Shown piece by piece: positions 1 through 36,955 of a stretch of DNA of 36,955 nt. Both the position numbers and the translations under genes were made by a program. The DNA comes from a virus. Taxonomy: Duplodnaviria; Heunggongvirae; Uroviricota; Caudoviricetes. Numbering within the stretch: the stretch's first letter is position 1; the number at the start of each line of letters is the position of its first letter. The DNA is taken from IMG/VR virus record IMGVR_UViG_2513237361_000013; one strand, 5' to 3'. The notes beneath the pieces are model-generated. The model searched no databases. It had not been told where the DNA came from and saw only the letters and a program-made list of their open reading frames with translations.

Positions 1-262
1 ATGGCACCGGACATTATCCTGCTGCGTACCGGGATCGACGTGAGGGCTGTCAAACAGGGAGATAATGCGTGGCACAAATTACGGCTCAGCGTCATTACCG
101 CTTCTGAAATTCACAACGTGATAGCAAAACCCCGTTCAGGAAATAAGTAGCCTGACATGAGAAGTACATGCCGAGTTTTGACGAGATGGTGCCGGAGTTC
201 ATCGAAAAAATGGACGAGACATTGGCTGAAATTGGTTTTGTATTTGGGGAGCAATGGCGATG
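1..262 (+). pseudogene. exo: lambda Exo-like 5-prime-3-prime exonuclease remnant (premature stop plus large internal deletion)
   Basis: Codons 1-48 ([48 protein letters not shown]) match the lambda Exo N-terminus as I recall it, then TAG at 148-150. From ~170 a different frame reads [33 protein letters not shown], the Exo C-terminus. About 140 internal codons are absent. Confidence 0.8.
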
Positions 263-537
263 AAGCATACTCACGATAATATCCGCGTAGGCGCGATCAC
301 TTTCGTCAAACCGATCGTTATCATGATAATTGAGGTAAAGAATGGCGCAAAGTAGCGTTGTGAAAATTTAAACGTCTCAACGCCTCCTTGAATTTCTCAC
401 CCCACATGAAAAAGAACCAAACAGCCCGCTTTGAGCGAAAAACGAACTATGATATTAGCAAGAAAGCATCACTGTTAATATTCGAACAATTAATGCTCAG
501 CTATTTCTCTATTATTTACAATCAGAAAGGACGTGTA

Positions 538-948
538 ATGGGTAAGGTTGATGAACTAAAGATGAAATATCCGGACGCGAATGCCTGGCAAATGGGCGAC
601 AGCCCTGAACTGGCTAACGAGCTTGCAGCACTTATAGAAAAAGGGATTAAAACGGCCTCCTGTGGCTCTTATGCCTCTTATCAGAAGGAAGAATTTGCCC
701 CAAGGATTGGGAGCTATAACATCATCCTTGACGGCCAGGATGTACCGGTATGCGTGACCAGGCTGGTGTCGATGCAACTGGTGTGTTTTTGTGATGTTAC
801 TGCCGAGTTAGCTCGCAAGGAAGGTGAAGGCGATTTGAGCCTTGAATATTGGCAGAGAGAGCATCAACGATTTTTCACCCAGGAAGGTCATTTTTCTGAA
901 GATATGGAGTTGATTATGGAAGAGTTTGAAGTTGTTGAGGTTCTGTAA
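538..948 (+). CDS. ASCH/PUA-like domain protein (hypothetical)
   Basis: ORF 388..948; preferred start is ATG 538 with AAAGGA 6 nt upstream. G.KTAS and ELARKEGEGDLSLEYW motifs resemble ASCH domains (YqfB-like). Function is inferred from motif memory only. Confidence 0.5.
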   Translation: MGKVDELKMKYPDANAWQMGDSPELANELAALIEKGIKTASCGSYASYQKEEFAPRIGSYNIILDGQDVPVCVTRLVSMQLVCFCDVTAELARKEGEGDLSLEYWQREHQRFFTQEGHFSEDMELIMEEFEVVEVL

Positions 949-1155
949 GATGAGATAAACGAGCTGACGTTATATCAATTGGCATTTATAACAATGTCCG
1001 CACCTGACACATAGCGGATCTAAATATTAACGAGCGTCCACCAAATAGAGGAATGTCTAATAGGAACCTGGCAGTAGAACTGTCATCTGACTGACCAACC
1101 GACCCCAAACAACTAAGAGGTTTTGATAACTTATTTTGATAACCGTTAGCAAACT

Positions 1156-1188
1156 AACATAAAACAACGGGCGTGTTATACGCCCGTT
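1156..1188 (-). terminator. intrinsic terminator downstream of the icd fragment
   Basis: Perfect 9-bp stem AACGGGCGT / ACGCCCGTT (1166-1174 and 1180-1188) with a 5-nt loop, followed on the minus strand by GTTTTATGTT. Confidence 0.5.
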
Positions 1189-1211
1189 ACAATATTTAAC
1201 ACATGTAGTAA

Positions 1212-1373
1212 TTACATGTTCTTGATGATCGTATCACCAAACTCTGAACATTTCAGCAGCTTAGCGCCTTCCATCAGACGTTCGAAGTCATAGGTTACGG
1301 TCTTAGCGTTAATTGCGCCTTCCATACCTTTAACAATCAGGTCTGCGGCTTCAGTCCAGCCCATATGGCGCAG
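1212..1373 (-). pseudogene. icd: orphan 3-prime-terminal fragment of isocitrate dehydrogenase gene (prophage attachment-site duplication, icdC-like)
   Basis: Minus strand translates [54 protein letters not shown], the Icd C-terminus. Homology stops abruptly near 1373, where the sequence becomes AT-rich non-coding. e14 and phage 21 are known to integrate in icd. Confidence 0.85.
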
Positions 1374-1565
1374 CAGTATATAAAAACATTAAGTTCAATT
1401 CATTGATATTTAATGATAAAAATTATTTTATTGTCTTTTTATTAGCCAAAATCAACTTTATTCAACCGTTTGATTTCATTGACGTTCGTTTTTATTTTGG
1501 GGAAAGGTTTTATCTACCATTTATATCAAAATTACAAGCCTACATTTTATTAACATCTCAATACA

Positions 1566-1596
1566 TGTGAGGCCTTGCAGACCTTTGTGAGGCCTT
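1566..1596. repeat. 11-bp direct repeat TGTGAGGCCTT x2 (20-bp period) near the att boundary
   Basis: Identical copies at 1566-1576 and 1586-1596, about 200 bp from the icd-fragment junction. Confidence 0.4.
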
Positions 1597-1914
1597 ATGT
1601 GTCTCAGTTTTGTCCCTCTTTTTTGTACTAAAAAACATAGTAATTGAGGATAAACCTCATGCTATTTTCGCTTATATGCCTCTAAAGGCATGGCACTTAA
1701 ATAGATAAAAGCACCACAAAATCATAAAAAAACCACACAGTAAAACCGCAATATGAAACAATAACAGATAATTAAACCAAAAACAGATAGCGCATTGTGA
1801 TAATCATTCAATACTAAACAAAATATAAACAGTGGAGCAATATGTAATTGACTCATTAAGTTAGATATAAAAAATACATATTCAATCATTAAAACGATTG
1901 AATGGAGAACTTTT

Positions 1915-2868
1915 ATGCGGGCGAAACTTCTGGGAATAGTCCTGACAACCCCTATTGCGATCAACTCTTTTGCTTCTACCGAGACTTTATCGTTTACTCC
2001 TGACAACATAAATGCGGACATTAGTCTTGGAACTCTGAGCGGAAAAACAAAAGAGCGTGTTTATCTAGCCGAAGAAGGAAGCCGAAAAGTCAGTCAACTT
2101 GACTGGAAATTCAATAACGCTGCAATTATTAAAGGTGCAATTAATTGGGATTTGATGCCTCAGATATCTATCGGGGCTGCTGGTTGGACAACACTCGGCA
2201 GCCGAGGTGGCAATATGGTCGATCAGGACTGGATGGATTCCAGTAACCCCGGAACCTGGACGGATGAAAGTAGACATCCTGATACACAACTCAATTATGC
2301 CAACGAATTTGATCTGAATATCAAAGGCTGGCTCCTCAACGAACCCAATTACCGCCTGGGACTCATGGCCGGATATCAGGAAAGCCGTTATAGCTTTACA
2401 GCCAGAGGTGGTTCCTATATCTACAGTTCTGAGGAGGGATTCAGAGATGATATCGGCTCCTTCCCGAATGGAGAAAGAGCAATCGGCTACAAACAACGTT
2501 TTAAAATGCCCTACATTGGCTTGACTGGAAGTTATCGTTATGAAGATTTTGAGCTAGGTGGCACATTTAAATACAGCGGCTGGGTGGAATCATCTGATAA
2601 CGATGAACACTATGACCCGGGAAAAAGAATCACTTATCGCAGTAAGGTCAAAGACCAAAATTACTATTCTGTTGCAGTCAATGCAGGTTATTACGTCACA
2701 CCTAACGCAAAAGTTTATGTTGAAGGCGCATGGAATCGGGTTACGAATAAAAAAGGTAATACTTCACTTTATGATCACAATAATAACACTTCAGACTACA
2801 GCAAAAATGGAGCAGGCATAGAAAACTATAACTTCATCACTACTGCTGGTCTTAAGTACACATTTTAA
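1915..2868 (+). CDS. ompT: outer membrane protease OmpT (omptin)
   Basis: 317-aa ORF matching E. coli OmpT essentially end to end from memory (MRAKLLGIVLTTPIA...AGLKYTF). GGAG Shine-Dalgarno 8 nt upstream of the ATG. Confidence 0.95.
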   Translation: MRAKLLGIVLTTPIAINSFASTETLSFTPDNINADISLGTLSGKTKERVYLAEEGSRKVSQLDWKFNNAAIIKGAINWDLMPQISIGAAGWTTLGSRGGNMVDQDWMDSSNPGTWTDESRHPDTQLNYANEFDLNIKGWLLNEPNYRLGLMAGYQESRYSFTARGGSYIYSSEEGFRDDIGSFPNGERAIGYKQRFKMPYIGLTGSYRYEDFELGGTFKYSGWVESSDNDEHYDPGKRITYRSKVKDQNYYSVAVNAGYYVTPNAKVYVEGAWNRVTNKKGNTSLYDHNNNTSDYSKNGAGIENYNFITTAGLKYTF

Positions 2869-2886
2869 GAACGCCAACTAAAATTT

Positions 2887-2911
2887 CCCCGAGGTGAAAA
2901 TCGCCCCGGGG
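2887..2911 (-). terminator. possible weak terminator between convergent ompT and appY
   Basis: CCCCG (2887-2891) pairs with CGGGG (2907-2911) around a long loop. On the minus strand it is followed by AAATTTTAG. The structure is weak. Confidence 0.25.
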
Positions 2912-3117
2912 AATAACTAGCCATTTCAATGTAACAATTAACCCTTAAAATAAACCCAGAAGGTTATTAACTAAATCACATAGAAAACCATCAATTATAG
3001 TGTGTATAAAATAGGCGACAGCAACCCAATTACAAATTAATGGTTCCAGAATATCACATCAAAAAACACGCTATATAATATTATAATTAACATGTAGACA
3101 ACTTGTAATAAATATTA

Positions 3118-3867
3118 TCAGTCAATTGTTTTGTTTATTCCATCTGTGACGCCGATTATTTTCTCAAAATAATGAGATGGCGTGACACCATAATAATCTT
3201 TAAATGCACATATGAAATATGAAGTACTGTTATAGCCACATTTCTGGGCTACGACATTGATAGAATAAGAGTTTGAAGTTATGAGTTTTTTTGCATACCT
3301 CATCCTAGTATCTCTCAATATTTCAGTAAATGACGTTCCTTCATCCCTTAATCTTTTTTTTATTAAACTTTCACTCGTATAAATCAATTCCGCAATATCT
3401 TTTAAATGCCATTGCCGCTCAATATTAAAACTGATTATTCCAGTAATTTTACAGGTAAATGTATTTATATTTGTTAGTATAAATGAATTTACACTTTCGC
3501 GTTTTTTGAACATGGCAAGTAAGGATATACATAGTCTTTCTTTTAACCAAAGGGAGTGTGAGTCTGCTATTTTAATCCCTTCAAACAGAGAAAAAACAAG
3601 CGATAATGGAGGTTCCTCTTCAGCAATATAGCCATTCTTATCAAGAGTAAATTTGCCAGGCAACTCATTATTCACGTCGATAAAAAAGGATAAACATGTT
3701 TTCTTATCTATATCAACAATTCTTAGTTTAGAGGGGCATACTGGTAACTCTCTTCTAATTTTGTCGCTTACAATAAACAATGAATTTTTTTTGAACGAGA
3801 TAACTCTCCTGTTTATAATTAAATCAAATGATTGACAGATGAAAACTACGGAGCAAACATAATCCAT
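3118..3867 (-). CDS. appY: AraC-family transcriptional regulator AppY
   Basis: 249-aa ORF with a C-terminal AraC helix-turn-helix ([28 protein letters not shown]). N-terminus [14 protein letters not shown] and the convergent position next to ompT match the K-12 appY/ompT arrangement. EnvY cannot be fully excluded without a search. Confidence 0.75.
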
Positions 3868-4443
3868 CTTGCACCTATCATAAAATTAAAACAAGTTGAT
3901 AGTAGTCAAATAACAACCAATTAAATACACAATCATAATCAGGATGATGTGCATTTATATTTTTATACACAAAATTATAGTTTGCAAATTTTAATAAATT
4001 TCATTTAAGATTAAATTATTATATGTATATTGTTTTTTATTTTAACGTATTTCAAAGTTACATTTTTTCAACGATTACCATGCTTTTTATTAACATAAAC
4101 TCACTACAACGCACCTGAAACCTCTTGCTATATATATGTCAACCGTTTGAATTTAAAATAAAAAGAGTATCATTTTTACTTGCATTTCTTATCAAGTCAC
4201 ATTCAACAACAGTAAAAAAACATTATTAGAACCATTCAATTAACAAAAAACCAACATTCAGCTTGCTTAATTTTTCTTTATTAAACGATATTGAAAATCA
4301 ATTGATAAAATACATCTAAACAACCTTTTGGGGCGCAAAAGCATAACATCAAACAAACAAATAACACACCGAAAAAACTCACAATTAATAACCTATGATA
4401 TACATACTGTTTATTATGGTTGAATAAGCCACTCGATATCTGG
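3868..4443 (-). promoter_or_regulatory. AT-rich upstream regulatory region of appY (likely nucleoid-protein-bound)
   Basis: About 570 bp of strongly AT-rich non-coding DNA immediately 5-prime of the appY start, with no credible ORF. Confidence 0.4.
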
Positions 4444-4543
4444 TGCTACGGAAGTGTCCACACGGTTTAGCAACACCCGATACTTTTTCCTGGCTTCCAG
4501 CAACGGGGTTTCTTCCTCCGTTGCATATACAGCTCACCTTTTT

Positions 4544-4837
4544 TCACCCACGATTAACCAACAGCCAGACCAGCAGACACGCCACCACCGGCACAGCAAA
4601 ATCCATCAGGCTTGCCACATCCCAAGCTCGCGGATCAAAACCGCCCCACCACGGCATATTCATACGCTTGCCATGTCCGAACATTTCAATCCAGCGATAT
4701 TCTGCCTGGGTGTGTTCACGCGCAATGAAGAACGTACAACCAGCTATCGCTCCGTAAGCCCAGTTTCCGGTAAAAAGACCAACCAGTATCTGCGCAGCCA
4801 CAGCACAAAGTGCATGAAGTAAGGGGCTTATATCCAT
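4544..4837 (-). CDS. small two-TM membrane protein (hypothetical; distal gene of stf operon)
   Basis: 97 aa with hydrophobic helices LLHALCAVAAQILVGLFTG and FAVPVVACLLVWLLV. AAGGAGG sits 5 nt upstream of the ATG and 12 nt after the stop of the preceding gene. Confidence 0.55.
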   Translation of the reverse strand: MDISPLLHALCAVAAQILVGLFTGNWAYGAIAGCTFFIAREHTQAEYRWIEMFGHGKRMNMPWWGGFDPRAWDVASLMDFAVPVVACLLVWLLVNRG

Positions 4838-4849
4838 TATTTCCTCCTT

Positions 4850-5128
4850 TCAGCTCCATTCCCGAAGCGGTGTTTCCAGCTCCACGACATAATCAGAGAA
4901 TACAGAAACATCAAACAAGTCATCAAGAATGCGAATGTTGACAAAATAACCGTCATTCCGGATACAGACAGGTTCTCCCTCTTCAGTTACCCCTGTTTCT
5001 GTGTAGGTGAAACCAATTTCATCGACTAACAGTTTATTCTGGAGGTCTTCATCTTCCTCCCAGTCAAGAGATGACAGGAAGGATTTAAACTCTCTGTTTC
5101 CAGGAAATTTCAAAGTTAAATCTTTCAT
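4850..5128 (-). CDS. small acidic protein translationally coupled to stf (possible tail-fibre accessory/chaperone)
   Basis: 92 aa. Its ATG overlaps the stf stop as ATGA, and an AAGGAGG Shine-Dalgarno lies inside the stf 3-prime end. Confidence 0.5.
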   Translation of the reverse strand: MKDLTLKFPGNREFKSFLSSLDWEEDEDLQNKLLVDEIGFTYTETGVTEEGEPVCIRNDGYFVNIRILDDLFDVSVFSDYVVELETPLREWS

Positions 5129-7146
5129 ACTGCCTCCTTGATTTGCCTGTCATTTAATTCTTTAAACCAGACTCTGAAATTTCTGATGTGTCCAAACAAA
5201 TGACGCGTTCCTGCTGCGGTCTGCCCACCAAACCGGTACGATGTTGCTGTAACTCCAAATATTTTACCATTAAGGTTTGTTGTATAATTACCATTGCATA
5301 TTGCATTTACTGATAAATCAGATTTAGCTCTCACACCCACAATGAACCTTTCTCCATCTGAGGCAATTTGTGGCTGAACCATTCCTACGTTGGCGCTTAT
5401 CTTTCCTGTTGAAACAAACCCCAGCGATAAATAATTATCATCAATACTGTGCCCTCCAACATCAAATATCCTTGGCGCAACATTGGGCGGTGTACTCCAG
5501 TTCCTGCTTACTTCGCACAATACCGTAAAAGGCCGTGTTGACAGGTTATTCTGCGATGGGATAGTAACCACATCACTTGCGCGTGTTGTTGGCATTGTAG
5601 TTACAATAAATGACGATGCCGTATTGCCCAGTTCAATTTGCGGCGTCGTCATGGTTAATGTTGAGTCATCATAGAATGGCTCATTACTTATTTTATTTGT
5701 CATATAAAAAGCACAGTTAACGGTATCAATGTCCGTATTAGCTGTATAAGTGGCCTCATAGTAGGTCCACTCGCCCTGTTGTTCAGCTTTGGCTGTTATA
5801 AGGGATGTATTACCGCTTACTGTTGCGATCCGGGTATCCAGATCAAGATAAGAGTCAGCAGAGAAGGTATCTGTTCCACCAATAATAACTGAAACTCTTA
5901 ACCTGCATCGTGCTTTAGCGCCTTTAACCCGGCACGAAAAAGTGAAACATTCACCACTTGCCAGCGGGAATCTGTCTGCTGCAACCACACCATGCACAGT
6001 ATAGCCACCTGTTGTTCCCACTATACTTTCCGTGGGTGTCACCGTGGCATAATTGAACCCCTGTTTATCAGTGCCAAATGTTTTATTCAGTGCGGAATGA
6101 ACAGTCCATGAGTCTGGTTTATTTGAGTTCCTCAGATAATTTGTCCTCTGTCCTTCAATCAATAAGCCATCGCGCTCAAATCGCGGTTCATCAACTTCAG
6201 CAAGCTTGAGTTGGCCGGACTTATTAATATACGTTGCTGTTGAAGCACGTTTAAACTTAACAATCTTGTCGCCTGGCATTGTTATTTCATCGTCACCAAT
6301 AACAATCTTTTTATATGATGGCGAAAACCCCGTAATCATATCCAGTGTATCGTTAAACGGTATCCATACATCAGGCAGCGGCGGCACTATATTCGCATAG
6401 GGCTCTGCAGTCACTTCCGCTGCGGCTTCTGCGCGGTCTGCCGCCTTTTCTGCTCGTGTCGCTGCCGACAGAGCCTCATCCTTTTTCTGCCCGGCCTTTG
6501 TTGCGTCTGCTGCGGCCTCCCGCGCTTTTGTGGTGGCGATTCCGGCATTTTCAGCGGCTGACTCTGCATTACGGCGGGAAGCCTCTTCACTGTCTGCGGA
6601 GGCTTCCTCTGACGCACGGGCATTTGTCTCTGAATGTTCTGCCGCTGTTGCTGCATTTTGTGCGGCTGTTTTTGAAGAAGCTGCCGCTTTCGCGCTGTTA
6701 CCTGCATTCGTCTCTGATGTTTTCGCCGCGTTCCTGGACGATGCCGCTGCTGTTTCTGATTTCTTTGCTGCCGCTGCGCTCTGAGAGGCGGCTTCAGCGT
6801 TGCGTGCCGCCTCTTCCACCATCTTTTCAAAACGATACAGTGCCTCCGGACGAACATCATCTTCTGTTGCAGCGCCCAGAAAATCATTCAATGTCCCCGG
6901 CTTAGAATCCTCATACACGGTGATGGTCCCGGCATGTGAAGGCGGAAAACCTTCAACCAGCAGGGCGACGCTGTACTGGCCATACTCAACATCCATGCTG
7001 TAACGTCCGGCTTCATCCGGATTTTCTGAGGCCACCGTGTTCACCACAACTGTGGTGCTGTTACGTTTTGCTTTGAGCTGAATGGTGCAGTTCTGTATCG
7101 GTTTTCCTGCACCGTCTTTCAGCACACCTGAAATCTGTACTGCCAT
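5125..7146 (-). CDS. stf: side tail fibre protein (Stf-like) with Ala/Ser-rich repeat linker and distinct C-terminal domain
   Basis: N-terminal domain MAVQISGVLKDGAGKPIQNCTIQLKAKRNSTTVVVNTVASENPDEAGRYSMDVEYGQYSV matches the lambda-type Stf N-terminus. Start is taken at ATG 7144-7146 (GGAG 6 nt upstream); the longer ORF-track start at 7209 overlaps J. Confidence 0.85.
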   Translation of the reverse strand: MAVQISGVLKDGAGKPIQNCTIQLKAKRNSTTVVVNTVASENPDEAGRYSMDVEYGQYSVALLVEGFPPSHAGTITVYEDSKPGTLNDFLGAATEDDVRPEALYRFEKMVEEAARNAEAASQSAAAAKKSETAAASSRNAAKTSETNAGNSAKAAASSKTAAQNAATAAEHSETNARASEEASADSEEASRRNAESAAENAGIATTKAREAAADATKAGQKKDEALSAATRAEKAADRAEAAAEVTAEPYANIVPPLPDVWIPFNDTLDMITGFSPSYKKIVIGDDEITMPGDKIVKFKRASTATYINKSGQLKLAEVDEPRFERDGLLIEGQRTNYLRNSNKPDSWTVHSALNKTFGTDKQGFNYATVTPTESIVGTTGGYTVHGVVAADRFPLASGECFTFSCRVKGAKARCRLRVSVIIGGTDTFSADSYLDLDTRIATVSGNTSLITAKAEQQGEWTYYEATYTANTDIDTVNCAFYMTNKISNEPFYDDSTLTMTTPQIELGNTASSFIVTTMPTTRASDVVTIPSQNNLSTRPFTVLCEVSRNWSTPPNVAPRIFDVGGHSIDDNYLSLGFVSTGKISANVGMVQPQIASDGERFIVGVRAKSDLSVNAICNGNYTTNLNGKIFGVTATSYRFGGQTAAGTRHLFGHIRNFRVWFKELNDRQIKEAV

Positions 7147-7150
7147 ATTC

Positions 7151-7180
7151 ACTCCACAAATAAAAAAGGCACCATTTCTG
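7151..7180 (-). terminator. intrinsic terminator between J and stf
   Basis: Stem GGCACC (7163-7168) / GGTGCC (7175-7180) with a 6-nt loop, followed on the minus strand by TTTTTTATTTGT, just before the stf Shine-Dalgarno. Confidence 0.55.
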
Positions 7181-7205
7181 GTGCCCGAATTTGGGGTTTT
7201 AAAAT

Positions 7206-8816
7206 TCAACTGATACTGATGCCGGCTGTTGATTTCTTCATCACGACAACAAGAAGGTCGCTGATACTGGTCGTTGGCGTCCAGTTATTTGCACCATATG
7301 AAGAAACATTGAAAGTCAGGGTGACATGGCCGTGTCCGGCAGGCATATCAATGACTGATGAAAATACCCTGCTGACATCCGTCGCGGGTTGCTGAAAGAT
7401 TTCCTGTCCGTTCTTCAGCACCTGCAGCTTACAGGTTGAATACCAGTATGACTGTTGGTTGTTGCTGTTGAAGTTTTCATGCTTACCACCGCGAAACAGA
7501 ACGGGGGGGATTACTATCTGACGGTCAAAAGCCTGGTCATCGTACACCGTGACCGTTATTGTACCGCTGGCATAACTGCTATTTCTCGGAAAGGCTTTTC
7601 CCACCGTTTTAACAATATCGCCTTCAATCTGGTTGGCTGACAGTTTTCCCAGAATCCGGCAGTTCTGATTAATCGTGACATTGTTGAGCGTCCCGGAGTT
7701 CGCGTTCACGTTACCGCTGATATCCGCATTTTTCGCCGTCAGCCGCCCGTCCGGTGTCAGGGAAAATGCCGGAGGATTACCGCCGCTGGTAATGGTGGGA
7801 GCCGTCAGATATTTCAGGAACACTTCATTCATAAATATCTGATCGCCCTGACCAACAAACATCGGCTTTGTATTGCCATTCGCAGGATTAATCATCGCAA
7901 TCCTGTCCGCCGCCAGCAGCACCTGACTCTGCATACCGTCAGGGGTATTCTCAATACCGGCACCAATACCCGCGATATAAAGGCGTCCGTCCTGCATCTG
8001 CTGCAGCTTCACAGCCCACATGCTGTTCAGGTTATTATTTGTATCAACCTGAACCTTCTGTATCTGCTGGATCGCTGCACTCTGGTCTTCCAGTTTCTTA
8101 TTGACGGTCTGCGTGATTTCATTGCTGACATCCGTAATGGACGTCCTGATTTCAGCCAGGTCAGGCGCAAGCTGACCGTTATCAATCTGCGTCCACAACT
8201 CCTGAGCCAGATGGGTTTTCCCTATCTCTCCTTTGAAAAAATCCAGATAGCCGGATGCATCATCACTCGGCTGGCCAACAGCCTCCACAAATGCCGATTT
8301 GCCAACGGTGTTCACACTGCGAATGTAAAAATAATAATCATGGCCCGGTTTGATATTGATACTAGCGGCTATCCAGTACAGCGCCGTACCAAGATAACGC
8401 GCGCTGGCTTCAACCTGCCTGATATCCGCAATCCGCTTTTCCGAGAACCAGAACTCAAACTGTACCGTCGGATCATAAACGGCAAGATGCGGCGTTGCGG
8501 TTATCTGAAAATAGCCCGGCGTCAGCTCAATCCGCGATGGCGCTGCCGGTGCGGCAATCCGGAACGATACCGACGCCGGATCCCCCTGCTGCCCCCACGC
8601 ATTTACCGCCCGGACTGTCAGCCTGTAGTTCCCCAGCGCCAGTTGCCTGAAGCGGTATGTGGTTTCCGTCGTCCTGGCCGTGCTGACCAGAAGAAATGTC
8701 CGGTGAAATGCTGGTTCTGGTGCCGGAAAGGCTGGAGATGCTGAAGGTGTTGCGAAATACCTGCCCGGTGTACAGCGGATGCATACCTCTGTCGGACCTG
8801 GAAAGAACAGTCCGTA
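7206..8816 (-). pseudogene. J: tail tip/host-specificity protein J, C-terminal portion only (5-prime truncated)
   Basis: Open frame of 537 codons closed upstream by TAA at 8817-8819. Contains lambda-J-like segments ([32 protein letters not shown]..., [40 protein letters not shown]). Full J is about 1100 aa; there is no start codon in frame between 8316 and 8816. Confidence 0.85.
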
Positions 8817-9935
8817 TTACACTGAACAGAAACACAGCCCGTACCGGTAAATTCTGCCTGACGTCCGGACAACGACTGGCACTGAAGCGTCTTTCTGAGA
8901 GAGGAAGAGATCGTCCCCTGAACCTGAAACAAAGTGAGCGGGGGCTGTACTGGCATTATGCCCGGCTGGCAGAGAATGTGGGCGTCAGGGATTTCAGGAT
9001 GCTGTTGATGACCGGGCTGGACCGGGAGGTTCATAAAATGGAAGACCGACAGTATGGACAGTGATTTTTTATCCGCAGAGAGACAGATGCATGCGTTCAG
9101 TAAGGGGAGCGTGGACCGTATTTTCTGTTGCTCTGTTGTTGTCTCTGACGAAAAAAACTCTGAACCGTGCGGTGATAGGGCGGGCTTTCGGAAGTTAAAG
9201 CTATGCTGCCTCGTGATTTCCGGTTTGCAGTGAACGTGACGATGGCCCTGCTGTCTGGATGTGATGGTACAACAACTATTTTACATGGGGAGTCAGACTG
9301 AAAGGATACTGAACCAGTTGATTGATACCGGTGCTGGATTTGACCAGGATGATTCTGGATCCGGATATTCTGTGTTGTTGTTCCTGAAGTGCTTCCCGAA
9401 CAGTTATATAAAAATGGACAACAGTTTCACACAGGGCATTCTGAATAAAGATACACCCTGGTTGTTGTCGGACTGGCAGAGATGCAGGGTGTTACTATGG
9501 TAGGTGAAAGTGCGAAAATACAGGAATCAGTGAATTGTTTGTGTTTTCTGAAGGGAGATTGTCTGCAGGAATTTGAGAGAAGTCCGGAGAGGGGGAGTCC
9601 ATTTTGTTGTAAATATAATTAAAGTCGATCATGTAATTAGTTGGTTATTGCTGAAAAAACGAAACTTGGTGTGTCTGGGTGATTCTTTGATTGCTATCAG
9701 TTAGTGTCATTTTTTCAAAAAAATATGAATTCATGTTGGCCGGGGCATAACGATAATATCCGGAGGCAGTGATGTAATCTTTGACGAGTGCATACATCAG
9801 GTTGTGTAAAATTGACAGAAAGATCGTTTGTTATACATGCCAGTCAGCACTCCTGATAATCCACTGACGTTGTTAGCGGATGATTTCTTACTGTGATAAA
9901 GTAAAATCAATTTTATTCTAAGGAGGAGCACTGGC

Positions 9936-30316: not shown

Positions 30317-30568
30317 TTAGTCCTGATTTTTATCCACCCTGAGTAGTTCGCGCAGAGCAAAGGCATCCCCTTTTCTGGCAAGCTTAAACAATGCCGCTCG
30401 TAACTCGGCTTCACCTTTCGCTCTGCCCTTACGGATGGCCGCATAAAAATCTGTCATTGCTTCCCGATTTTCTTTCAGTCGGTTCAGATCAACATCCAGA
30501 ACGTCAGCGATTTGTTGTGCAGTCATCCGGCACGCTGCCAGAGACTCGACTTTCGAATACGGAATCAT
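30317..30568 (-). CDS. small putative DNA-binding protein
   Basis: 83 aa, basic and helical (AAIRKGRAKGEAELRAALFKLARKGDAFALRELL), 3 nt upstream of TerS. Overlaps the upstream gene by 65 nt in another frame. Confidence 0.45.
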   Translation of the reverse strand: MIPYSKVESLAACRMTAQQIADVLDVDLNRLKENREAMTDFYAAIRKGRAKGEAELRAALFKLARKGDAFALRELLRVDKNQD

Positions 30569-31436
30569 TTGTCACCCCCATTGATATGCAGGGTGTCTTC
30601 TTCCTGTATTTTTCGTGAAGGATTTTTACTGCAGCGTTGTTCCAGGTGACCTGATGGTGAATGCGTTTATGGCTGGCACCCATCAGTGAGATTTTTACGC
30701 ACGACGGCGCATACATGACGGAGTAAAAACTTTTAACGTAGGTTCCGGAATCCAGATACAGCTCGGTCATTCCGCCGCTGTTTTTCTGCGTCTGTTTCTG
30801 CCCTAACTGGACAGCACCGATCGTCATAAACAATTCACCACAGCGACCGAGATTCGTGTACGTATTCACATCCTCGTTAATGCGCCCCATGAATGAGAAC
30901 GGTCGATCAACCGAACAGATAAAGCTGTTCATTGCCTTGCGTTTCACCCACGAAGCATGGCCGCCATTGTCACCAAGAAAATCCCCGCCCTGCGACATAG
31001 CGATGGAAAGAGCAGGTATTGATTCGTAGTACGCCAGCATTTCAGAAAGGATCGCATCCAGTTTCCTTATCGGAAAATAGGCCTGGTCATAGTTGCGATC
31101 CACCCGAAACTGGAACTCGTGATAATCATCATCGAGCTGAATGAAGTATTTACACCCGACCAGTTTTGCCAGGTCGAAACAGGCATTACGGGCGTAAAAA
31201 ATTGAGCGGCGGTCACAGAAATTATCGGCTTCGTCAAAACGACTGGCGATATCGGCTTTGGAAAACACCAGCACCTGTTCACCAAATTCAGCCATGTACT
31301 GATGCCGTGTCTTATCTTCATCATCAACAACGATAAAAATTTTCCCGGTATAGCCAGCACGACGCAACGTCCGGTAAGTCAGAACTTTGTCCGGTCGCCC
31401 GTGAGTCAGAATAAAGGCGCAAAAATCATCACGCAT
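30504..31436 (-). CDS. GT-A-fold glycosyltransferase-like protein (putative), translationally coupled to ParB-like gene
   Basis: Start at ATG 31434-31436 (MRDDFCAFILTHGRPDK), overlapping the ParB-like stop by 8 nt with GAGGAGGAGGAA as Shine-Dalgarno. Motifs FIVVDDEDK and IQLDDDYHEF (DxD-like). No transmembrane segment. Confidence 0.55.
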   Translation of the reverse strand: MRDDFCAFILTHGRPDKVLTYRTLRRAGYTGKIFIVVDDEDKTRHQYMAEFGEQVLVFSKADIASRFDEADNFCDRRSIFYARNACFDLAKLVGCKYFIQLDDDYHEFQFRVDRNYDQAYFPIRKLDAILSEMLAYYESIPALSIAMSQGGDFLGDNGGHASWVKRKAMNSFICSVDRPFSFMGRINEDVNTYTNLGRCGELFMTIGAVQLGQKQTQKNSGGMTELYLDSGTYVKSFYSVMYAPSCVKISLMGASHKRIHHQVTWNNAAVKILHEKYRKKTPCISMGVTNDSVFESRVSGSVPDDCTTNR

Positions 31437-32220
31437 ATTCCTCCTCCTCACCACCATGCATGATCTCCACCATGCGCTGCGTCATCCGGACAAATCCATT
31501 TTCAATAGCCTGCTGATAATCAATGATCACCAGCGCCGACTCCTCGAAAAAACACTGAATTTCAGAGGGGGCGTGAGCGTAATAGTCCGCAATTCTGCTG
31601 AAATTAAACACCGTGTGACGTTCTGCCGCACACAGGAGGAATTTCTCAATATCAGGCTCAAGGGACGCCGAACGTATCCGGCTGATCAGCTCCTGAGTTT
31701 TCGTATCGTCGTACAGTTCACTGATATCCGGTTTACCGCCCGACGGCTCATAAACAGGCGTATCAATTTTCGTCGTATACGGCTCCTCCTCATTTCCTGT
31801 ACCGGGCAAAACATCCGTCAACAGTTCATCAATTTCTGTCGGGATGAAGCCTGTCAGGGAGACATCAAAATCAGCATTGATTAGGTCCGACAGCTCCATC
31901 CGCAACAGATCTTCATCCCAGCCAGCATTCATCGGCAGGCGATTATCTGCCAGGCGGTACGCCTTTTTCTGCTCATCCGTCAGGCCAGACAGAACAATGA
32001 CCGGAACAGAATCCATTTTGAGCATTTCAGCCGCCATAACACGACCGTGACCCGCAATAATTTCGCCCTTTTCGTCAATCAGCACCGGATTAGTCCAGCC
32101 GAATTGCTTAATACTTTCTACCAGTTGTGCCACCTGCTCAGTACTGTGCGTCCTGGCGTTGTGCGCATACGGTGACAATTCTTGTAATGGGCGATAGACT
32201 ATCTTTAATTTCTCGCTCAT
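31429..32220 (-). CDS. ParB N-terminal-domain (ParB/Srx-fold) protein, phage-type
   Basis: 263 aa with YRPLQELSPYAHNARTHS...ESIKQFGWTNPVLID...IIAGHGRVMAA, typical of the ParB N-terminal nuclease/NTPase fold. Confidence 0.85.
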   Translation of the reverse strand: MSEKLKIVYRPLQELSPYAHNARTHSTEQVAQLVESIKQFGWTNPVLIDEKGEIIAGHGRVMAAEMLKMDSVPVIVLSGLTDEQKKAYRLADNRLPMNAGWDEDLLRMELSDLINADFDVSLTGFIPTEIDELLTDVLPGTGNEEEPYTTKIDTPVYEPSGGKPDISELYDDTKTQELISRIRSASLEPDIEKFLLCAAERHTVFNFSRIADYYAHAPSEIQCFFEESALVIIDYQQAIENGFVRMTQRMVEIMHGGEEEEYA

Positions 32221-32357
32221 ACAGCCTTGCTTTATGAATAAAACGCACCCCAGCAGCCAGTGCTACTGGGGACGGAGGTGTTGCTGGTAAAGTTAGGTAT
32301 TGGATCAATGAGTGAGTCAACATAATATTAAACTCACAATTATAAATCAGCCATATA

Positions 32358-33814
32358 TTAGGAGCGCCAAAAAAAACCTGAAAACAATATAATAACAGGA
32401 TAAATTTCAAGGCGACCAAGAATCATAGCTATGCACATTAAACATTTTGCAATGTCATTAAGTACTCCGAATGACGATGCAGTAGCCCCAAAACCTAATC
32501 CCATATTATTAATACATGCAGCCACTGTTGCAAATGATGTAAGAAAATCATATCCCATACCATTTAACACCAGTATAAAAAACACCGTAAAGAGAGTATA
32601 AAGAAAAAAGAAACTCCATACAGACCTCATTACACGATCTGTAACTATCTTCCCTCCTACATTTACACTCAACAACGCTCTGGGATGAGAAAGCTGATTT
32701 ATCTCGTGTTTGCTTTGTTTGAAAAGTATAAGAAATCGAAGTGACTTAATTCCACCACAAGTTGAACCTATACATCCCCCAAAGAAACTTGACAACAGCA
32801 AAAATACTATCGTGTGCGTGGGCCAACTTGCATAATCCTGCGTAGCTAAACCATTATCAGTGAGCATGGAGCTGGCAAGAAAAAACGAATGAATAAAACT
32901 TCCATGCAAGTCATACATACCTATATGCCAGACCTGGAAAGAGGTAACAATGATCACCCCTAAGGCTATTAACAGAAAGAAACGAAGTTCAATATCTCTG
33001 ATTAAAGGTTTTATCGTTTTCCTGCTAATAACAATATACCAAAGAGTGAAGTTGAAAGCCGATAGCAGGGAAAAAGAACCAGCCACCAGCTCAACCAAAT
33101 AGTTATTAAAATATCCGATACTCTCGCTATGAGTTGAGAAACCACCAAGCGAAACTGTGGAAATCCCGTGACAAATAGCATCAAACAAAGGCATTCCTGC
33201 AAGTCTATAACAGACAATACAAGCAATACCTAATAAAGAATAAGTTATCCACAGTGTCCGTGACGTATCGGCCAGGCGGGGAGTGAGTTTGTCATCCTTA
33301 AATGGCCCCGGCATTTCTGACTGATAAAGCTTTGCACCACCAATACCCAATAATGGCAATACAGCAACCGCCAGAACAATAACTCCTAAACCACCTATAA
33401 AATTTAACTGTGACCGATAGTACAAATATGCCCGAGGTAATGAACTAACATCATCAATTACAGTTGCTCCTGTTGTTGTTATTCCAGAAACCCCTTCAAA
33501 CAGAGCATCAATGAACGTTAAATTAAGTTCTGAGTCAATCCATAAAGGGAATGCACTAATAACAGAAAACAAAATCCAAAACATTACAATTATAATAAAC
33601 CCATCACGGGTACGTAATTGAATGCCAGATTTCTTAGTTGTATACCACGCTCCGCCACCAATGCAAAAAAAATAACGAAAGTTATAAAGAAAACGAACAG
33701 GCTTTTTTCTTTATAAAACAATGCTACAACCATTGGTGGCAACATTGAAAGACTATAGAGCCAAACCAGGAACCCACACATATGAGTAACAACTCTTACA
33801 TGAGATGTATTCAT
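32358..33814 (-). pseudogene. trkG: Trk potassium uptake protein TrkG (TrkH family), interrupted by -1 frameshift
   Basis: N-terminal ORF (33590..33832, MNTSHVRVVTHMCGFLVWLYSLSMLPP) and C-terminal ORF (32358..33584) are joined if the 8-A run at 33665-33672 had 9 bases; the alternate frame reads CIGGGAWYTTKKSGIQLRTRDGFIIIVMFWILF into the downstream ORF. AT-rich moron, as in the Rac prophage. Confidence 0.85.
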
Positions 33815-34380: not shown

Positions 34381-34405
34381 TCAACAGTCATAAGGAGTTT
34401 CATTT

Positions 34406-34636
34406 ATGACAGTCAGTATTGTTTCACCTTCCGCAGCGACTGTAAAGCCCCGCCGTCATCCCCGTTTCAGACGCGAAGACATCCCCGCGCCGGAAATTGA
34501 CCCCGTACTGAAAGCCTTCGGGCGACACATAGCCCGGAGTTTTCACCGGGGGCGTGGTGTACACATCCCCGCCATGAAAAACACGGCCTTCGGGCAGGTG
34601 CTCCGCACACTCGAACTGAAACGCGCTTTTAACTGA
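34406..34636 (+). CDS. small basic hypothetical protein (first gene of plus-strand operon)
   Basis: 76 aa with AAGGAG 8 nt upstream of the ATG. Shares an IPxPEIDPVLK motif with the small ORF at 19748..20002. Confidence 0.5.
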   Translation: MTVSIVSPSAATVKPRRHPRFRREDIPAPEIDPVLKAFGRHIARSFHRGRGVHIPAMKNTAFGQVLRTLELKRAFN

Positions 34637-34687
34637 TGAGGTGAGCCGCCCCGCGAGGGGCGGCAACAGACGGAAGGAGAACATTTT

Positions 34688-36049
34688 ATGACATTAGCAG
34701 CAATCACCATGACCGCCCCGGAAGCCGCCAGTCCTGTGCAGATGTACCGCGCGACCTACTCACCGGATGATAACAAACTGCGCCTGTATGCCGCGTCACG
34801 TCTTGACCAGGAAACGTATAAAAAAGTGCATGATGCCGGTTTCCGCTGGGCACCCAAACAGGCGCTGTTTGTCGCGCCGGCCTGGACACCGGGCCGGGAA
34901 GACGTGCTCCTCTCACTTGCCGGAGAGATTGAGGATGAAGACAGCACGCTCGCTGAACGTCAGGAAGCACGGGCGGAGCGGTTTACCGGATACAGCGGAA
35001 AGCGGGCCAGTGAATCCGCACAGGCACTTGATGAAGTGGAAAGACTGGCCGCGATGATCCCGCCCGGTCAACCCATTCTTGTGGGGCATCACAGCGAACG
35101 CCGCGCCCGTCGTGATGCGCAGCGTATTGAAAACGGCATGAAACGTGCCGTGATGCTCTTTGAACGTGCGGAATACTGGGAAGAACGCGCGCGGTCGGCA
35201 CTGCTTCACGCGAAGTATAAAGAACGTCCGGACGTTCGCTGGCGTCGTATCAAAAAAATCGAAGCTGATTTGCGCAAGGCTGAAAAGACCATCGCACAGT
35301 CGCAGAAATATCTGACGATGTGGCGGGCTGAATCGCTGGATCTGAATATGGCAAAACTCATCAGCAGTCATGACCATATCAGCGCCTGTTTCCCGCTGGA
35401 TACGTATCCGCGCCCGGCAGAAAAAAGCCAGTATGAAGGAAGTCGATCGTTATGGTCGGCCCTGGATGATGACATCATCACCACGGAGCAGGCCCGCGAA
35501 ATTGCGATCCGCTGTCATGAACGGCAGATCCAGCGTCAGCAACGCTGGGTTAACCACTATCAGAACCGCCTGATCTATGAGCGTGCCATGCTGGACGAAA
35601 GCGGCGGCGTGGTTACCCGGACACAGGATTTTGAGCCGGGCGGACAGGTTTTCAGCCGGGGCGAGTGGCTGACCATCATCCGTGTGAACAAAAGCAACGG
35701 GGCGGTGAGTTCAGTCACAACGCCAAATTACAGTTTTCTCGGGTACAGCGGCACGATGAAAGTGACGCCCGATCGCATCACGGACTACAAAGCACCATCG
35801 GCAGAAGAGGCTGCCGTCGCCAGTCAGGCCGCGAAGCGTCCGCCGGTAGTCAACTATCCGGGGGAAGGTTTCCGGGAAATGACAAAGGCACAGTGGGCCG
35901 CCCTGCCCCGGGACTGTAAGGCCGTGCGCAGTGTGGCAGAAGCAGAAGACCACGGGGCATACCGCTACCGCCGCACAATGGACAATAATTTCCGCCTGGT
36001 GAATGTGTATATCACCGACATGAAAATCACGGAAATCCCACAGAAATAA
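34688..36049 (+). CDS. large conserved hypothetical protein (plasmid/phage-associated, DUF3560-like by recollection)
   Basis: 453-aa GC-rich ORF with a coherent charged/helical sequence and no internal stops. The family assignment is from memory only. Confidence 0.65.
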   Translation: MTLAAITMTAPEAASPVQMYRATYSPDDNKLRLYAASRLDQETYKKVHDAGFRWAPKQALFVAPAWTPGREDVLLSLAGEIEDEDSTLAERQEARAERFTGYSGKRASESAQALDEVERLAAMIPPGQPILVGHHSERRARRDAQRIENGMKRAVMLFERAEYWEERARSALLHAKYKERPDVRWRRIKKIEADLRKAEKTIAQSQKYLTMWRAESLDLNMAKLISSHDHISACFPLDTYPRPAEKSQYEGSRSLWSALDDDIITTEQAREIAIRCHERQIQRQQRWVNHYQNRLIYERAMLDESGGVVTRTQDFEPGGQVFSRGEWLTIIRVNKSNGAVSSVTTPNYSFLGYSGTMKVTPDRITDYKAPSAEEAAVASQAAKRPPVVNYPGEGFREMTKAQWAALPRDCKAVRSVAEAEDHGAYRYRRTMDNNFRLVNVYITDMKITEIPQK

Positions 36050-36096
36050 GGTATATCCCCCCGGGAAAATCCCCGGGGGATGACGGAGATAATGAC

Positions 36097-36660
36097 ATGC
36101 ACAGTCAGTTAAGAGAACGTATCCGGCTGATGCGCGCAAGGCTGGATAACGCCGCGCCGGTTGCTGAAATCCGGGCTGAATCTCAGCTTTTTGTGACTCC
36201 TGCCCCGGTCTGTGATCGCCTGGTGACGCTGGCGGAGATCAGCAACCGTGATCACATTCTGGAACCCTCTGCCGGCACCGGGGCCATACTGCGGGCGATT
36301 CGGGATACCGCACCGGGGGCCATGTGTGATGCGGTGGAGATTAACAGCGGGCTGGTCCGGTATCTGCGGGACAATTTTAACGGTGTCAGGGTACAGTGTT
36401 GCGACTTCATGGAATGGCAGCCGGTGCAGTATTACAGCCGGATTATCATGAATCCGCCGTTCAGTCACGGGCAGGATATCCGGCATATCCTGCGGGCTTT
36501 TTCCCTGTTGCGTCCGGGGGGCGTGCTGGTTGCCGTCTGTCTGAACGGGCCGCGCCAGCAGGAGAAGCTGTTACCGTTTTCTGACGTCCGCGAGGAGCTG
36601 CCACGCGGCACGTTTGCTTATACCAGTGTTCCGACGATGATTATTCGTCTGCGTGCCTGA
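36097..36660 (+). CDS. small class I SAM-dependent methyltransferase with NPPF motif
   Basis: 187 aa with motif I LEPSAGTGA and motif IV NPPF, typical of amino-group (N6-A/N4-C or RsmD-like) methyltransferases. Confidence 0.8.
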   Translation: MHSQLRERIRLMRARLDNAAPVAEIRAESQLFVTPAPVCDRLVTLAEISNRDHILEPSAGTGAILRAIRDTAPGAMCDAVEINSGLVRYLRDNFNGVRVQCCDFMEWQPVQYYSRIIMNPPFSHGQDIRHILRAFSLLRPGGVLVAVCLNGPRQQEKLLPFSDVREELPRGTFAYTSVPTMIIRLRA

Positions 36661-36666
36661 TGACGC

Positions 36667-36700
36667 CGGGCAGGCGGGAGGATAAATGCCCGTCTGCCCG
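36667..36700 (+). other. GC-rich 12-bp-stem hairpin immediately after methyltransferase stop
   Basis: CGGGCAGGCGGG (36667-36678) pairs with CCCGTCTGCCCG (36689-36700) with one mismatch and a 10-nt loop. No U-run follows. Confidence 0.4.
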
Positions 36701-36789
36701 CGCCGGGAAAAACCGCGCGCCGGTGGCGCTGAAAGGGGCCGCGCTGACGCGCCGCCCCTTCCATTACGCGGATATTCTGATGGGGACTT

Positions 36790-36932
36790 CTGTCTTTTCA
36801 GACCTGTCATTTGTCTGTTACTGATGATGTTGTTGTTCCTGCTACTGCTACTGTTCTTCTTTTTTCTGATGCTCTCATTACTGTTTGTTTTGTTGTTCTC
36901 CTGCTTATGCCTTTTCCGGGCGCTCTTTAAAA
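36790..36932 (+). repeat. A-poor (CTG/TTG/TTC)n-like low-complexity tract
   Basis: About 140 nt almost devoid of A on the plus strand. It reads as Leu/Phe/Met codon repeats in the frame of ORF 36686..36955. Confidence 0.5.
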
Positions 36933-36955
36933 ATCTGGATCAAGCTGAAAATTGA

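Follow-up and report, generated by a model that had tools for sequence, protein, structure and literature searches.

The orphan icd 3′ end and its surroundings

The window, by which we mean the whole stretch of 36,955 nucleotides that was analyzed, carries near its left end an orphan icd 3′ end (icd′) on the minus strand at 1212-1375. It consists of 53 codons plus 2 nt and a stop codon, the latter at 1212-1214. The 54 residues translated from 1215-1376 (minus strand) match residues 363 to 416 of the intact Icd of a related genome with 52 of 54 identities (E = 7e-36), and a tblastn search with full-length Icd against the 36,955-base window revealed no icd sequence besides this fragment. A preliminary description of this DNA had reported a 54-codon C-terminal Icd fragment with no upstream icd sequence. 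Our data agree on both points, with small corrections to the coordinates.

The icd′ fragment is followed on its 3′ side by a perfect 9-bp inverted repeat, AACGGGCGT/ACGCCCGTT, with arms at 1166-1174 and 1180-1188. A terminator scan identified here an 11-pair stem running from 1190 to 1164 on the minus strand and then TTTATGTTAG, and the same GC-rich hairpin with its U-rich tail forms the dominant helix in the RNA fold. Thus, the strong hairpin terminator that had been described downstream of the fragment was recovered by scan, inverted repeat and fold alike. We assign 1164-1190 (minus strand) as the icd intrinsic terminator hairpin, which is kept in attB, attL, attR and attP.

Alignment of attB, attR, attL and attP sequences showed that homology with intact icd ends abruptly at 1375/1376; the window tracks intact icd to ...GGCGCAGCA (1375) and reads TATATAAAAAC... 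thereafter. This break point is identical in the window, phage 21, 4A7, A37, E. coli strain 582 and K-12 icdC. The segment 1158-1616, which spans the junction, aligns with the attP region of phage 21 (M61865, OL657228) at 92.8% identity and, over 1158-1616/1623, with phages 4A7, 1W and 3W at 95.7% identity. On the basis of this homology to the phage 21 and 4A7 attP, positions 1376-1557 are assigned as the phage-21-type P arm of an attR. Matches to the IHF consensus are located at 1396-1408 and 1463-1475 (minus strand) and are pattern matches only. Beyond the P arm lie a conserved 59-bp block (1558-1616) and the prophage cargo genes ompT (1915-2868, plus strand) and appY (3118-3867, minus strand), both annotated in matching E. 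coli records.

The prophage boundary in related genomes

The genome neighborhoods of the gene at 538-948, to the left of icd′, show what this locus looks like in the absence of the insertion. Its product, an ASCH-domain protein, was found residue for residue in many Escherichia assemblies. At six of the eight loci shown (L006-L009, L011 and L013), a left flank identical to that of the window (exo′, DUF1317′ and ASCH) leads into an intact 416-residue icd, and then rluE, nudJ and mnmA; in these genomes icd is uninterrupted and attB is empty. At the other two, L010 (closed genome CP099351.1) and L012, ASCH is followed by a 50-residue icd stub and then by ompT, appY and lambdoid tail genes, as in the window. 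L010 differs from window positions 1-7195 by 3 mismatches. L012 provides a sister attR in which a different icd allele (7 SNPs) extends to ∼16 bp from the junction, next to the same P arm. This allele switch places the strand exchange within roughly 1359-1376, the interval bound to contain the core site. Thus, comparison of the att junctions fixes the break at 1375/1376 and confines the core to 1359-1376.

No intact integrase was found within the 36,955-base window, which also lacks early genes. A complete version of the arrangement is provided by E. coli strain 582, which has the same icd′-ompT-appY junction, with 99.3% identity over 1155-4000. About 50 kb from that junction, strain 582 harbors xis, int, an intact icd and rluE, and its Int is 99% identical to that of phage 21. 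The attL of strain 582 contains three P′ dodecamers. At least 80% of window 1100-1650 is carried by 1,461 of 5,426 complete E. coli genomes.

Because the same left flank leads into intact icd in the empty-site genomes, because the sequence at the junction matches the phage 21 attP and because strain 582 carries the same junction with int and intact icd at the far end, we conclude that the preliminary description was correct in its main interpretation, namely, that icd′ is the displaced 3′ end of the gene and marks the boundary of an icd-targeting prophage that lies to its right. Its assignment to an e14/phage 21 type holds in part: the phage 21 type is confirmed and the e14 type is not, as the e14 P arm is unrelated to the window past the junction. 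A phage-21-type attR in icd is an already known kind of feature, and this is a textbook case. Indeed, the window shares with phage 21 the insertion point at icd codon 363, ∼218 bp of icd and terminator homology and a P arm that is 93 to 96% identical. It differs from phage 21 in the cargo beside the arm, which is sitABCD in the phage and ompT-appY, as in DLP12, in the window, and in its host, which appears to be a non-coli Escherichia.

The incoming phage brought with it the terminal ∼165 nt of icd together with the terminator, and at the far (attL) end this phage-borne copy would now be expected to complete the gene. The icd 3′ end that had been there before, with its terminator, was displaced to 1164-1375, and the prophage begins at 1376 with the 21-type P arm, which includes one dodecamer, TTTTGGGGAAAG, at 1495-1506, ∼120 bp from the junction.

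The source assembly itself could raise the suspicion that the icd fragment is an artefact, or else a piece of a contiguous, diverged icd, rather than a true att junction. The last 10.9 kb of the window are an exact match to GCA_000208565.2 (AEME01000001.1); genes of the F-plasmid leading region come after Rz; a 23S rRNA gene begins immediately beyond the end of the window; and a 7-kb ibrAB-like island separates the C-terminal third of gpJ from tail gene L. From the F-plasmid genes, the 23S rRNA gene and the ibrAB-like island, the source record looks like concatenated contigs. However, these signs lie elsewhere in the window, and the junction itself recurs in the closed genome L010, in the separate assembly L012 and in the closed genome of E. 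coli strain 582. Moreover, the sequence to the right of 1375 is phage 21 attP and not icd, and the window holds no further icd sequence. An artefact or a contiguous diverged gene, the outcome that would have undone the preliminary description, is therefore extremely improbable. For the annotation of this attR, the prophage boundary is thus fixed to the base (1375/1376), the phage 21 attachment family is assigned and an arm-type site, described below, is placed.

An e14-type relic and the arm-type sites of two elements

The DNA on the other side of icd′ is itself of phage origin. Directly beside the icd′ terminator, the window contains two copies of TTTTGATAAC, at 1121-1130 and 1134-1143, and the empty-site relatives contain three copies beside their icd terminator. 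In 19.5 kb of K-12, TTTTGATAAM, the word of which the window has these two copies, was found four times where 0.17 would be expected: three times beside the icd terminator (attL) and once 118 to 127 bp from the icdC junction, with the same orientation throughout. The K-12 e14 attL aligns with window 1021-1375 at 79% identity. On the basis of this identity and the two TTTTGATAAC sites, we assign 1021-1157 as the relic P′ arm of an e14-type attL.

Further to the left, the 3′ end of the K-12 e14 intE gene and its downstream flank align with window 307-438 at 86% identity. A tblastn search with IntE residues 357 to 375 gave a match with 74% identity, and the alignment ends at the same ...KVAL stop. 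Thus, 304-363 (plus strand) is the relic of an e14-type integrase gene, of which the 3′-terminal 19 codons persist, interrupted by one in-frame stop, and the e14 homology continues to 438. At the extreme left, the ORFs at 1-150 and 168-263 correspond to the N- and C-terminal ends of an exonuclease, and the exo DNA of the window matches a “lambda exonuclease family protein” of E. coli prophages in two pieces; the ORF ends presumably also match lambda Exo itself. We designate 1-263 (plus strand) as a lambda-type exo gene that has lost a large part of its interior and that belongs to an older, decayed prophage; the same relic adjoins intact icd in the empty-site genomes. Between the int relic and the relic P′ arm lies the ASCH-domain gene (538-948, plus strand; Pfam ASCH match on the record), which we regard as cargo. 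A 92% identical E. coli homologue of its product is encoded in a prophage that carries P2-like genes, within the variable region, and a 94% identical E. ruysiae homologue does not adjoin icd in the genome representatives scanned.

Taken together, the TTTTGATAAC repeats, the homology to e14 attL and intE, the int stub and exo′ show that the native downstream flank of icd in this lineage is an e14-type prophage relic. The window and the K-12 e14 element (intE, icd/icdC) have in common an attB inside icd and the position of the junction. The differences are equally clear: the prophage arm to the right of the window junction is active-looking and not e14-like; of the older element only remnants persist, among them 19 codons of int and a gutted exo, and xis is missing; and K-12 e14 has ymfD-ymfE-lit where the window relic has the ASCH gene. 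Thus, two icd-targeting elements of different specificity were inserted one after the other, and the displaced icd end is itself phage-borne rather than pristine chromosome. This is also a difference from phage 21, in that the B′ side of the window is an e14-type relic and not plain chromosome. The 21-type phage later entered the icd copy that had been completed by the e14-type element. The icd 3′ end is known for its hypervariability, with which a phage-derived end is in line. For this lineage, it means that the “chromosomal” icd 3′ end is phage-derived and that icd has been struck at least two times, by elements with different specificities. In work by Wang and colleagues from 1997, the phage 21 and e14 systems are said to differ in both arm and core specificity.

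The arm-type sites of the younger element can be placed by reference to phage 21. The OL657228 annotation lists three attP subsites, P1, P2 and P3, with the consensus YYTTCCCCAAAA, between int and the icd terminator. On the strand shown here they read TTTTGGGGAAGG, TTTTGGGGAAAG and TTTTGGGGAAGA, and these annotated arm sites are the TTTTGGGGAARR dodecamers. The three dodecamers at the attL of strain 582 are identical to them. The window contains a single exact match to YYTTCCCCAAAA, the dodecamer CTTTCCCCAAAA at 1495-1506 (minus strand), 119 to 130 bp into the P arm. It is kept in every 21-type sequence aligned, and phage 21 likewise has a TTTTGGGGAARR dodecamer ∼120 bp into its P arm. The distance and orientation of this site are those of the single P-arm copy of the e14 motif. 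Hence, the 21 and e14 elements both have three sites beside the terminator and one ∼120 bp into the P arm, in a single orientation, and this parallel geometry favors the assignment of each word as the arm site of its integrase. From the GenBank annotation and the geometry, 1495-1506 is the predicted 21-type arm site of this prophage. The minimal phage 21 attP (366 to 418 bp), as reported in the 1997 study by Wang and colleagues, is said to end at the outermost dodecamers.

Two other candidates in this region were rejected. An e14-like inverted motif at 1524-1532 was judged to be a chance occurrence. An e14-type attR was also considered; the e14 arm diverges from the window immediately past the junction, and no copy of TTTTGATAAM was found in the window to the right of 1376.

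The 11-bp repeats, the stem-loop and the 59-bp block

The preliminary description had drawn attention to two exact 11-bp direct repeats on the prophage side of the junction. These are indeed present: the window has exactly two copies of TGTGAGGCCTT, located at 1566-1576 and 1586-1596, 20 bp apart from start to start and 190 to 220 bp from the junction. When one mismatch is allowed, 0.49 matches are expected per window and at least two were obtained in 8 of 100 shuffles, so the pair is notable for its adjacency and not for its length. The counterparts in phage 21 differ from each other (TGTGTGGCCTT and TTGCGAGGCCTT). Among 103 occurrences of the block in the loci compared, about 90 of them from viral contigs, the common form is TGTAAAGCCTT ... 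TTGYGAGGCCTT, and the exact duplicate is a minority form. The exactness of the pair is a lineage-specific trait.

The terminator scan of the plus strand revealed that 1563-1602 can form a stem-loop with 18 pairs, a 4-nt loop and the tail CTCAGTTTTG; on the plus strand it is followed by CUCAGUUUUG. The two 11-mers lie in its arms and pair with each other through six G·U (or U·G) pairs. The predicted RNA fold has a free energy of −24.6 kcal/mol with a z score of −4.8 for the plus strand, compared to −1.0 for the minus strand. We infer that the two repeats are the arms of an 18-bp stem-loop, which, because of its reliance on G·U pairs, is predicted to be confined to RNA of the int-sense (plus) strand. 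Phage 21, K-12 DLP12, 4A7 and A37 likewise yield this hairpin as their minimum-energy fold. In 4A7 it is weakened (z = −1.0), and some of the natural variants weaken the stem, several of them by adding mismatches; the stem arms of phage 21 are imperfect, whereas those of the window hold exact 11-mers. Covariation within the hairpin was no better than in shuffles, with 13 distinct variants showing little variation and 93.6% of cells paired. The U-tract is separated from the stem by CUCAG, an offset of 5 nt. A search of Rfam with the hairpin gave no match, and nearby there were only subthreshold matches.

The position of the stem-loop relative to int is consistent among loci that carry an integrase gene. 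The hairpin lies downstream of int on the same strand, 150 to 225 nt away where the Int is of the tRNA type (these Ints share 50 to 100% identity) and ∼500 nt away where it is of the 21 type. OL657228 annotates CII boxes at the position of the stem-loop in phage 21, and the window keeps one of these, TTGCAGACCTTTGT, at 1575-1588 within the stem-loop. Campbell described a stem-loop downstream of phage 21 int, which was likened to sib and contained several CII recognition sequences; phage 21 was noted to have no CII recognition sequence upstream of int, and the mechanism by which int is controlled from downstream was still undefined (PMC3530522). The structure at 1563-1602 most likely corresponds to this sib-like stem-loop with embedded CII-type boxes, as it has the same position and the same type of boxes as in phage 21.

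The stem-loop resides in the 59-bp block at 1558-1616, which is conserved in phages with different integrases and in our alignment forms the join between the 21-type arm and a DLP12-type ompT module. Homology to K-12 DLP12 begins at 1557, and homology to the 21-type arms ends at 1616-1623. The tRNA-type Int phages Kati, 2G7b and DLP12 also have the block; in K-12 it lies ∼67 to 125 bp inside the annotated right end of DLP12. In lambda, a recognizable homologue of the block directly follows the tI/sib hairpin and is a hairpin as well; the tI/sib hairpin in turn adjoins P1, the outermost Int site. The lambda sequence homologous to the block is the segment after tI and not the sib hairpin, to which the window stem-loop has no sequence similarity. 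Two further features set the window structure apart from lambda sib/tI, its G·U-rich stem and the 5-nt offset of its U-tract. The likeness to lambda lies in the arrangement: in both cases an int-sense stem-loop is located just past the outermost P-arm Int site and is separated from int by integration.

The preliminary description had taken the repeats for arm-type sites of the integrase that targets icd. In favor of this view are their exactness, their close spacing and their location to the prophage side of the junction, and heterobivalent integrases do use repeated arm sites. Nevertheless, the 11-mers bear no resemblance to the TTTTGGGGAARR dodecamers and do not match the consensus YYTTCCCCAAAA of the annotated phage 21 arm sites, whose P-arm copy is at 1495-1506, 60 bp nearer the core. 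They are absent from the P′ arm of both phage 21 and strain 582. The two copies are not identical in phage 21 or in the form that is commonest elsewhere. In addition, the block that contains them also occurs beside unrelated tRNA-type integrases and, in lambda, outside attP. The minimal attP limits reportedly established in 1997 by Wang and colleagues would put the repeats ∼60 bp outside the site. For these reasons we consider an arm-site role for the repeats very unlikely and do not retain that part of the preliminary description. Assignment of the repeats as Xis/Int sites of a DLP12-type system was likewise rejected, as the block lies outside attP in lambda and in phage 21.

Two further explanations accept that the block is conserved and dispense with an RNA structure. 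The block could be the 3′ end of a small minus-strand gene of the b region, truncated in the window and kept only as a patch of homology for recombination between cargo and attachment modules, with the hairpin incidental. Indeed, phage 21 gene CPT_21_32, which encodes a putative membrane protein of 51 aa (51 codons), ends inside the block; the window (26 codons, 1558-1638) and K-12 both retain the frame and stop of this ORF; some of the differences among blocks are synonymous (CCT/CCA, TCA/TCG); both block edges are recombination joints; and the covariation is not significant. However, the block is nearly invariant even in the ompT-type modules, whose ORF lacks the N-terminal two-thirds and with them the hydrophobic segment, and the lambda record has no gene annotated over the homologous segment. 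Neither the strong strand asymmetry of folding nor the constant position downstream of int would be expected from coding alone. We regard this explanation as a serious but less likely alternative. Less probable again, and distinctly unlikely, is that the block acts purely as a DNA site for the CII activator (TTGC-N6-TTGT, 1575-1588), as a CII-dependent promoter or roadblock. In its favor, the phage 21 annotators put CII boxes exactly at the block, Campbell placed several CII recognition sequences in the downstream segment and none upstream of int (PMC3530522), and the box is kept in 11 of 13 variants. On the other hand, the CII-box pattern occurs in the window at chance frequency (9 found compared to 9.65 expected), and the window lacks the second box of phage 21, the ompT module being in its place from 1617 onward. 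There is no convincing −10 element after the box, and a promoter scan found none on the plus strand here. Moreover, a promoter at this position would read away from int.

The reading that best accommodates these data, to which we assign a probability of about 0.8, is that window 1021-1620 is the attR (P arm, core and B′) of a phage-21-type lambdoid prophage in the 3′ end of icd, with the repeats being likely parts of a sib-like stem-loop. In this attR, the stem-loop is predicted to be a terminator or retroregulatory element for int transcripts, and in the prophage state it would be uncoupled from int by integration, as is the case for lambda sib. It is possible, if doubtful, that the 59-bp block as a whole is a portable, integrase-independent regulatory cassette composed of the G·U-rich sib-like stem-loop and a CII box. 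If so, such a cassette would move with the attP-proximal end of many lambdoid phages, including the icd type, several tRNA types and, as a diverged copy, lambda, and it would imply CII- and/or RNase III-dependent control of int from downstream. The stem-loop blocks collected here provide natural variants for studying the downstream regulation of phage 21 int.

The block also marks a change in the ancestry of the prophage. Window 1557-4000, including the stem-loop block, is 99% identical to K-12 DLP12, in which ompT-appY lies beside the attR at argU. In contrast, the attachment arm, the target gene and (by proxy) the integrase of the window prophage are of the phage 21 type. We infer that the 59-bp block may have served as the recombination joint at which a 21-type attachment arm acquired the DLP12-type ompT-appY module. 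A 21-type arm can thus carry this virulence-associated module, a combination that is rare in E. coli, with 2 occurrences among the 5,426 complete genomes.

Spread of the icd'-ompT-appY junction

The junction that joins icd', the displaced 3' end of icd, to ompT and appY (window positions 1155-4000) is rare in E. coli, being found in only 2 of 5,426 complete genomes, those of strains 582 and 7CC, whereas ompT-appY at the position of the cryptic prophage DLP12 is common in that species. Between an E. coli and this non-coli Escherichia, the 1155-4000 stretch is 99.3% identical. This near-identity across the two suggests that one recombinant phage has recently spread between species.

Origin of the icd downstream flank

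In E. coli K-12, the icd terminator together with TTTTGATA-like repeats occurs once more, in degenerate form, near ymgL (positions 17945-18031 of the K-12 locus). This copy, which is 79% identical to window 1121-1207, lies ∼0.9 kb beyond icdC, the displaced icd end at e14, with iraM in between. Strain A37 has no iraM, and there the same degenerate sequence directly follows icd'. This comparison suggests an ancient e14-type arm as the source of the E. coli icd downstream flank too, with iraM inserted later. Our alignment of attB, attR, attL and attP sequences revealed three TTTTGATAA repeats in empty-site relatives (for example, L006). One of these is missing from the window and from two sister attR loci (L010 and L012), an 11-bp deletion between direct repeats at window 1130-1134.

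Candidate RNAs

A full-length but subthreshold Rfam match to STnc150, an Hfq-binding sRNA of Salmonella, was obtained at 968-1198 on the plus strand (35 bits against a gathering score of 60, E = 7e-5). The match is on the other strand from icd' and stops at the icd terminator hairpin. It may represent a diverged sRNA within the relic e14-type arm; K-12 carries an annotated sRNA, C0293, in a comparable place near the e14 attL. A partial Rfam match to IS009 at 4448-4500 on the minus strand (36.8 bits against a gathering score of 117, E = 4e-6) runs off the end of the searched stretch.

Nonphage segment, late-region cargo and the right end of the window

A nonphage segment (8316-15300) separates tail gene L (15320-16018) from a fragment encoding the C-terminal part of tail-tip protein J (7206-8315). 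It encodes an AraC-type regulator, an ibrAB-like pair made up of a PAPS-reductase/DUF3440 gene and its IbrB-like neighbor, a ModA-like binding protein and two ORFs with no family assignment. Either J, I and K were destroyed by insertion of this segment, or the segment reflects the joining of contigs during assembly. The late region carries cargo at 30504-33584, flanked by Rz and the terminase genes: a TrkH-family potassium transporter similar to trkG of Rac, a TET-associated glycosyltransferase (TAGT) and a protein with a ParB-N domain. This cargo possibly includes a DNA-modification module. F-plasmid leading-region genes (DUF3560 and a methyltransferase) directly follow the prophage Rz/Rz1 at 34400-36955. 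A 23S rRNA gene begins immediately past the window end in the source record, and csrA, alaS, recX and recA come after it; neither 34400-36955 nor the sequence just beyond contains N runs. This order, from Rz/Rz1 through F-plasmid genes to 23S rRNA, looks like concatenated contigs, not real synteny.
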